Assembly: GCF_003334385.1 (NCBI RefSeq)
Contig: NZ_QOWN01000007.1
Reading direction: 5' to 3' (one strand)
Length of the DNA: 64,000 nt
Origin: Escherichia coli
GTDB taxonomy: Bacteria > Pseudomonadota > Gammaproteobacteria > Enterobacterales > Enterobacteriaceae
This document shows, piece after piece, positions 10,870 through 11,531 of this stretch (the stretch's first letter is position 1; each line of letters opens with the position of its first letter). The notes beneath the pieces were generated by a model. The model had not been told where the DNA came from. It did not search any database and saw nothing but the letters and a program-made list of their open reading frames with translations. Both the position numbers and the translations under genes were made by a program.

Positions 10870-10898
10870 TTAATTTCGATTATTTTTCCCGGATGGAA

Positions 10899-10920
10899 AA
10901 TTCTTAGAAACCGATCACAT
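10899..10920 (+). promoter_or_regulatory. Candidate CRP site and sigma70 promoter of cyaR (-10 TATCAT at 10941-10946)
   Basis: TCACA half-site at 10915-10919 with a weak upstream half; about 41 bp upstream of the inferred CyaR 5' end; CyaR is known to be CRP-activated. Confidence 0.4.
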
Positions 10921-10953
10921 ACAGCTGCATTTATTAAGGTTATCATCCGTTTC

Positions 10954-11040
10954 GCTGAAAAACATAACCCATAAAATGCTAGCTGTACCAGGAACCACCT
11001 CCTTAGCCTGTGTAATCTCCCTTACACGGGCTTATTTTTT
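10954..11040 (+). ncRNA. cyaR: Hfq-dependent small RNA CyaR (RyeE)
   Basis: Sequence gctgaaaaacataacccataaaatgctagctgtaccaggaaccacctccttagcctgtgtaatctcccttacacgggcttatttttt matches CyaR as I recall it, including the terminal hairpin plus U-run; lies in the yegQ-yegR intergenic region. Confidence 0.85.
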
Positions 11041-11198
11041 ATGCATAAGCCCTATCCCTGGTCACCGTCTTCCATTGACCACATCGATAGAATCTCCCTT
11101 CATAGCACGATGCCTTTCACGTAACGGCATCGTGCTCGCACAGGTTCCGGCTAAGCACAACCAGAACGCACATATTTGACGCTTACCAAAAAATATTC

Positions 11199-11531
11199 TC
11201 ACTCTCCACATTTGAATGTCAGACGAGCGACACCATGTAATCCTACACCTTCTGTCTTCAGCTCAACTATTTGCATTTTTTTGCCCTGAGTAACACAGAA
11301 ATGGGCTGCATCATTTTTTACTATATTTTCTGCACCAGATATTCTACCCCTGGCTAAAGAAGCTTCGGCTTCGGTGTAGTATTGGTTATCGAGTTTACGC
11401 TGAATATTACTTTTATATGCAAGGCCAAATTTACCGATACTTGTCTCATCATTATGCACAGCACAACCAGACATAAGAAAAACACTAATTAATGATATAG
11501 CAGCTATTTTATTCACCTCACCTTCCCCCAT
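11199..11531 (-). CDS. yegR: Small putative lipoprotein YegR
   Basis: ORF 11199..11621 (-); signal/lipobox-like LISVFLMSGC; start chosen at the internal ATG at 11531, exact start uncertain. Confidence 0.6.
   Translation of the reverse strand: MGEGEVNKIAAISLISVFLMSGCAVHNDETSIGKFGLAYKSNIQRKLDNQYYTEAEASLARGRISGAENIVKNDAAHFCVTQGKKMQIVELKTEGVGLHGVARLTFKCGE

Follow-up and report, generated by a model that had tools for sequence, protein, structure and literature searches.

A probable vacant P2 attachment site at the 3' end of cyaR, and a possible older P2-like relic beside it, in an Escherichia coli chromosome

The sequence analyzed here (the window) is a stretch of 64,000 nucleotides of E. coli chromosome that extends from mdtB to yehW. 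The closest complete genome, NZ_CP033635.1, is 99.9% identical to it over positions 2718-44430 and 99.8% identical over positions 44420-61358. The region of interest begins with yegQ/trhP (9508-10869, plus strand), which encodes a tRNA U34 hydroxylation protein and was recognized from its open reading frame and from the annotation of that near-identical genome. It is followed on the same strand by the cyaR promoter region (10870-10951), assigned by identity to K-12, and by the gene for the small RNA CyaR, also called RyeE (10952-11040). Beyond cyaR lie yegR (11199-11516, minus strand), encoding a predicted lipoprotein of 105 amino acids (Pfam PF27694), and yegS (11930-12829, plus strand), encoding a lipid kinase, both identified by open reading frame and annotation.

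CyaR was found at full length on the plus strand at 10952-11037 with the Rfam model RF00112 (100.7 bits, the gathering score being 47; the match covers model positions 1-85 of 85), and transfer of the K-12 annotation places the gene at 10954-11040. From the yegQ stop codon to the end of the terminator T-tract (10870-11041), all 172 nucleotides are identical to K-12 (positions 4031-4202 of the K-12 locus), an identity which suggests that promoter function and CRP dependence would be retained in this strain. The intrinsic terminator (11005-11040, plus strand) was delimited by a terminator scan and by folding; it has an 11-bp stem at 11005-11032 with a 6-nt loop, followed by TATTTTTTAT, and its minimum free energy fold is -20 kcal/mol (z = -3.2). 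By this comparison both the promoter and the Rho-independent terminator are intact, as an earlier note on this DNA had stated on reading the sequence. The same note had put the distance from the terminator to the yegR stop codon (11199) at about 160 bp, in good agreement with the approximately 157 bp that we measured.

According to the earlier note, K-12 carries the P2-like genes ogrK and yegZ between cyaR and yegR, and the gene order in NC_000913.3 (trhP, cyaR, ogrK, yegZ as a pseudogene, yegR, yegS) bears this out. The interval between the terminator and yegR is 788 bp in K-12 MG1655, as against about 157 bp in the window, and it contains an annotated "cryptic prophage PR-X" of 629 bp, comprising ogrK and yegZ, that begins inside the 3' end of cyaR. 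No counterpart of this 629-bp segment (ogrK and the D' fragment) was found by blastn between cyaR and yegR of the window, confirming that the P2-like remnant is absent there. The window aligned with the K-12 locus in two parts, 9001-11048 with 2162-4209 (98.7% identity) and 11023-12829 with 4813-6612 (96.1% identity), and the break between these alignments falls exactly at the CyaR terminator. Their 26-bp overlap is a direct repeat, present in one copy in the window and in two copies in K-12. A comparison with K-12 had been proposed as a way to find att-like repeats, and such repeats do flank PR-X, 629 bp apart: the one next to cyaR is complete at 27 bp, and the one next to yegR is a partial copy of 18 bp. 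The yegR-side copy retains only TACACGGGCTTATTTTTT, joined to the D' (yegZ) fragment, and according to the K-12 annotation PR-X has neither int nor cox. PR-X and the window share the same integration point and orientation, and their sequences agree at the junction next to cyaR, up to and including the core; they differ in that the remnant is absent from the window, which has a single core rather than one full and one partial copy.

This repeat is the att core of phage P2. The 27 bp at 11014-11040 of the window, AATCTCCCTTACACGGGCTTATTTTTT, are identical at 27 of 27 positions to the attP core annotated in the P2 genome (AF063097, 24356-24382); the BLAST match, to 24355-24382, is identical over 28 bases, and the 27-mer has a single match in the 64-kb window even when 3 mismatches are allowed. 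Within the CyaR terminator, the core takes in the final two bases of the 5' stem, the loop, the 3' stem and the T-tract. The remark in the earlier note that sRNA loci are hotspots of phage integration is borne out at this locus, where the repeat is an annotated attP core. The P2 core has on one flank ogr and the ogr terminator together with the sites for Int (P arm) and IHF, and on the other flank the Cox sites, the P' arm and int. Strain 98207 holds a complete P2-like prophage at the site, with the core at the integrase-side junction of the prophage; int ends 80 bp from this core, and yegR lies beyond it.

We take the attachment site at cyaR to be the classical locI of E. coli C, and Barreiro and Haggard-Ljungquist are said to have found in 1992 that locI is occupied by a P2 remnant in K-12. 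The P2 integration site of E. coli C has been given as position 2165238 of MG1655, in an older numbering (PMC3448106, Table 1). Other strains hold P2-like prophages at the cyaR site in the same orientation. A shift of about 1.98 kb between MG1655 versions presumably puts position 2165238 within about 15 bp of the core, and with this conversion the core of the window lies at the mapped P2 site of E. coli C. In its comparison with the P2 locI site and its Int/IHF/Cox system, the window has a core that is identical to attP and a position that matches the published one. We consider it very probable that the segment 10870-11200 is the unoccupied primary P2 attachment site (a locI-type attB) in the 3' end of CyaR, and none of the observations speaks against this.

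A P2-type tyrosine integrase would recombine the core of the window with the identical attP core, a step that we assume for this strain from what the integrase family does, and the integrated prophage would then lie with its P arm and ogr beside cyaR and with int beside yegR. Because the phage brings its own copy of the 27 bp, CyaR would be rebuilt unchanged after integration. This exchange of part of the terminator for an identical copy would also account for CyaR being the same in K-12 and in the window. The arrangement resembles 3'-end integration in tRNA, tmRNA and sRNA genes, where the phage likewise supplies a replacement 3' end, and CyaR is unchanged whether its gene is occupied (as in K-12) or not; however, the target in this case is the terminator of an Hfq-dependent sRNA rather than a tRNA gene. 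P2-type integrases usually integrate between or within non-tRNA genes (PMC3448106). PR-X of K-12 is the stump of such a prophage; an internal deletion has taken all that lay between gene D and the middle of the distal core. Lysogeny of the window strain by P2 should be expected at this preferred site.

The occupancy of the site was evaluated with three junction-specific megablast searches of 5,426 complete E. coli genomes, a collection skewed to laboratory and clinical strains, so that the results are to be read as counts and not as population frequencies. The empty site, with a continuous junction between cyaR and the spacer, was found in 4,203 genomes (77.5%). The junction specific to K-12, between D' and the partial core, was found in 356 (6.6%), and every sampled example of it was a laboratory K-12 derivative. 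The P2-type junction of int, P' arm, core and yegR flank was found in 817 genomes (15.1%), leaving by subtraction about 50 genomes (about 0.9%) with other states of the site. The empty state is clearly the norm and the K-12 remnant a minority exception. The absence of PR-X from the window is unremarkable because 4,203 of the 5,426 genomes have the empty site and 356 the remnant: the earlier observation of an empty P2 site is correct, but it concerns the usual state of the locus and is ordinary and already known, and it is the ogrK-yegZ remnant of K-12 that is a peculiarity of its lineage. The cyaR-yegR locus could conveniently be used for typing, its three states being empty, PR-X and prophage.

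The earlier note had left it open whether this strain never acquired the remnant or had cleanly lost it. A lineage that once held either a K-12-type remnant or an intact prophage could have lost it without a scar, as slippage or recombination between the 27-bp and 18-bp repeats flanking PR-X would delete the remnant and restore the exact sequence, and an intact prophage would be lost by Int/Cox excision; a loss of this kind is indistinguishable from a site that was never occupied. The P2-type junction in 15% of the genomes is consistent with frequent gain and loss. However, the K-12-type junction is confined to the 356 genomes mentioned above, those sampled being laboratory derivatives, and the right flank of the window, at 96.1% identity, is not that of a close relative of K-12. 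We regard such a past loss as improbable. That the strain never acquired PR-X is the more parsimonious of the two possibilities, because PR-X lacks int and cox and because the right flank has diverged by 4% from K-12; loss is the less economical one, given a remnant in 356 of 5,426 genomes.

Although the core of the window does not differ from that of the P2 locI site, the flank beyond it appears to bear a decayed arm-type site. A weak blastn match joined window positions 11058-11087 to the phage side of PR-X in K-12, and the spacer at 11041-11198 was found to align with the annotated Int P-arm site of P2 (CTGGTCACCGTCTTC-CATTGACCACATCGA in the window, as against CTGGTCA-CGTCCACACATTGACCACATCGA in the phage). 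The local alignment has a score of 38, compared with 15.0 +/- 2.3 for shuffled sequences, none of which reached 38 in 2000 shuffles. The 15-mer CATTGACCACATCGA has a single exact occurrence in the 64-kb window, with 0.01 expected. A multiple alignment was made with P2, P22H4, PR-X of K-12 and the cyaR-integrated elements of E. albertii, Citrobacter, Buttiauxella, Enterobacter and Trabulsiella. Read outward from the core, the window has ATGCATAA where the phages have ACGCGTAA. There follows a 16-nt gap in the window that falls exactly at the IHF region of the phages (TGAAATAAAAG), and the arm-type site comes next, 17 nt from the core. Its strand and its side of the core are those seen at occupied sites. 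No variation in it was found among four aligned E. coli variants, one of them the host side of PR-X in K-12; K-12 therefore has two P arms in series, that of PR-X and the host-side relic. These alignments point to 11058-11088 as a putative degraded Int P-arm site of P2, within a degraded P arm of P2 type that would extend over 11041-11088 (plus strand).

Further out, 3' of yegR, a hairpin with an 11-bp stem at 11104-11136 (-21.3 kcal/mol, z = -5.5) lies at the position of the ogr terminator of P2 and has no U-tract; it is predicted from its fold and place to be a positional analogue of that terminator. AATCTCCCTT, which forms the first 10 nt of the core and the loop of the CyaR terminator, recurs at 11091-11100, just past the P-arm relic. 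We considered this second copy as a core remnant and set it aside, as it is only 10 nt long, is not conserved in K-12 (which has AATCCTCCTT) and lies at the wrong end for a simple deletion model; it may be due to chance or be a decayed core fragment. Two insertions were seen near here in other strains. ECE204 has 12 bp (AGAGACGGATTG) inserted within the 17 nt that separate the core from the relic, at about window position 11057, and some E. coli, such as AVS0710, have an AT-rich insertion of 172 bp just 3' of the yegR stop codon, at about 11190.

With only about 31 aligned positions and with neither a phage gene nor a second core alongside, the likeness at 11058-11088 might be fortuitous, or an aberrant excision might have given P2-like phages a P arm captured from the flank in E. 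coli. A chance likeness is at odds with a score about 10 standard deviations over the shuffles, with a 15-mer that is unique in 64 kb, and with an orientation and side that match those of occupied sites. Furthermore, phages and the cyaR-integrated elements of Citrobacter, Buttiauxella, Trabulsiella and Enterobacter hold the arm with an intact IHF region and GTCCACA repeat, whereas unoccupied cyaR sites in these genera have no P arm, and it is the copy in the window that shows the degraded state, with its 16-nt deletion and substitutions. Both chance and capture seem to us very unlikely, and we proceed with the reading of this segment as a degraded P arm.

A scan of species representatives with a cyaR pattern gave at least 120 loci of other species, in which YegQ, YegS and YegR were sought by tblastn. 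Among the matches listed, YegQ lies upstream of cyaR in essentially all of the 120 loci, and yegS follows cyaR directly in 53 of them, in many genera and with a homologous spacer, its start being 124-285 nt (median 136) from the start of the cyaR pattern. YegR was found at none of the 120 loci, and no part of the sequence between the core and the conserved spacer was found in them, again among the matches listed. Two close genomes, 'E. coli' E69 (CP089930.1) and Escherichia sp. E1V33, show the simpler arrangement: window positions 10627-11040 and 11838-12829 are contiguous in them by blastn, and the ancestral spacer, CGACTTTCATCCTGTTCTGAC, directly follows the CyaR terminator, as in other Enterobacteriaceae. 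In the window this spacer was placed by alignment at 11838-11929 (plus strand), immediately before yegS, the ancestral right neighbor of cyaR. The 797 bp at 11041-11837 are an E. coli-specific insertion relative to these two genomes. It begins right after the last base of the att core and holds the P-arm relic, the hairpin, yegR and the region upstream of yegR. Its G+C content is 39.8%, compared with 54.3% for yegQ and 49.9% for yegS, and a search of the 5,426 complete E. coli genomes gave no instance of the uninterrupted cyaR-yegS arrangement of E69.

If the 797-bp segment were instead ancestral to Escherichia, it would have been deleted in E69 and E1V33, which are the only two close Escherichia comparators without it among the matches listed. 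Against this stand the 53 species that have yegS after cyaR with a homologous spacer, the absence of YegR from all 120 loci among the matches listed, the low G+C content, and the unrelated locations of the YegR homologs of other species, including one amid IS elements. We judge an ancestral segment to be very unlikely, and insertion in the E. coli lineage is the reading followed below.

FDAARGOS_1077 was a candidate for an ancestral E. coli without yegR and was rejected, being a window-like strain with a secondary deletion of 294 bp. It is otherwise 99.9-100% identical to the window in this region; the deletion corresponds to window positions 11166-11459, takes most of yegR and apparently occurred between short repeats (CACAACCAGA). 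Because most of the gene is deleted there, yegR is dispensable in that strain.

A homolog search showed YegR (PF27694) to be nearly confined to E. coli and Shigella. The few distant homologs occupy unrelated chromosomal loci, and the gene family appears to be mobile. In Enterobacter sp. BIDMC 29, a homolog with 50% identity (positions 8001-8318 of the locus) lies beside an MFS transporter and is bracketed by transposase genes of the IS3, IS110 and Tn3 families. Within the 797 bp, yegR is the sole gene, and no recognizable phage gene (int, ogr, D) was found. The distal end of the insertion was searched for another core copy and for a P' arm, but the alignments were no better than those of shuffles, with only a TTTT overlap at 11838. 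No donor of the segment was found among the phages or plasmids searched, and the only phage records with yegR were prophage-derived ones in which it belongs to the host flank. One of these, vB_EcoM-720R8, was dismissed as a carrier, its match being host DNA in a record that also holds yegS and gatR; a full-length match of YegR to phrog_21109 of PHROG is probably the same prophage-border artifact and was not counted. The plasmid matches were to records of chromosome size or to chromosomal pieces, and were discarded.

Other species offer precedents for repeated use of this site. P2-type P arms were seen directly after cyaR at five Citrobacter loci, in a Buttiauxella MAG, at one locus each of Enterobacter and Trabulsiella, and at one further locus (L085), in some cases together with homologs of Ogr or Int. 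In each case the core matches the host's own variant of the cyaR terminator, for example TTACGCAGGC or TTGCGCAGGCC. Because P arms follow cyaR in several genera, cyaR can be regarded as a target of P2-like elements throughout the family, and the site would have been used by them repeatedly. A MAG labeled Collinsella sp. also has, on a 9.7-kb contig, cyaR followed by a K-12-like P arm and an OgrK of 99% identity; this is E. coli K-12-type DNA binned into an actinobacterial MAG, probably by contamination.

A parallel is found in E. albertii NBRC 107761, in which a truncated P2-type P arm comes after the cyaR core, then cdtABC and then yegS, without a phage backbone (positions 4906-8413 of the locus, a segment that stops about 340 bp short of yegS). 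The score of CdtB with NF011787 is 363.9 bits (cutoff 189). Judged by its sequence context, this cdtABC is a putative toxin operon remaining from a decayed P2-like prophage at cyaR. Viable P2-like phages bear cdt-V in TO, a cargo ('moron') region that lies between A and Q/cos (PMC6823313). The retention of cargo beside the stump of a P arm is a documented outcome at cyaR because of the cdtABC of E. albertii together with phage-borne cdt-V. The architecture of the E. albertii island is the same as that proposed here for the P-arm relic and yegR. However, a phage carrier is documented for cdt, whereas for yegR none was found.

An older layer at the locus is suggested by these comparisons, in which the 797 bp with the decayed P arm and yegR would be the relic of an earlier P2-like integration that became fixed in E. 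coli. Stated in full, the 'empty' site would be a palimpsest. A P2-like prophage would have integrated into cyaR at the base of E. coli and become reduced to a minimal, fixed relic, 11041-11837, in which yegR is the cargo that survives; P2 would now be re-using the core left by this relic. We give this full reading an even chance of being right. Of the marks of a prophage relic, the segment abuts the core, has an arm site in the orientation of a prophage and is itself absent from the relatives; it shows neither recognizable phage genes nor a distal core or P' arm. The assignment of yegR as phage cargo follows the analogy with cdtABC, and the 797-bp insertion could be composite.

The fossil P arm and the E. 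coli-specific yegR insertion are the new detail that this locus adds, and it is a modest one; no description of either was found in the literature searched. If confirmed, the older layer would document how a single sRNA terminator was used in succession by members of the same phage family, and the survival of cargo beyond its phage (yegR in E. coli, cdtABC in E. albertii), and it would provide an origin for the orphan lipoprotein gene yegR. If the palimpsest is real, part of the classical locI flank would itself be phage-derived, including a decayed Int arm site.

Several further features were observed elsewhere in the window. In NZ_CP033635.1, an IS421 of 1.35 kb splits a WGR/DUF4132 gene; the window has no IS at the corresponding positions 44420-44431, and the gene should be uninterrupted there. 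The antitoxin RNA OrzO-P gave a full-length Rfam match (99.2 bits) at 50834-50909, in the intergenic region between yehK (50397-50714) and yehL (open reading frame from 50955), and no obvious candidate for a ZorO-like toxin was seen near it among open reading frames of at least 20 amino acids. Between yegS and fbaB, at 12903-23881, the window is without the gat (galactitol) operon, and K-12 and strain 98207 have gatR-gatYZABCD at this position. The window has there instead a HAD hydrolase, two transporters of the RbtT/DalT family, xylB-like and FGGY kinases, dalD, an SDR oxidoreductase and two regulators, a gene content by which this segment is a predicted D-arabinitol/ribitol catabolic island. 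The mutual exclusivity of gat and rtl/atl is classical, the latter being the E. coli C type.
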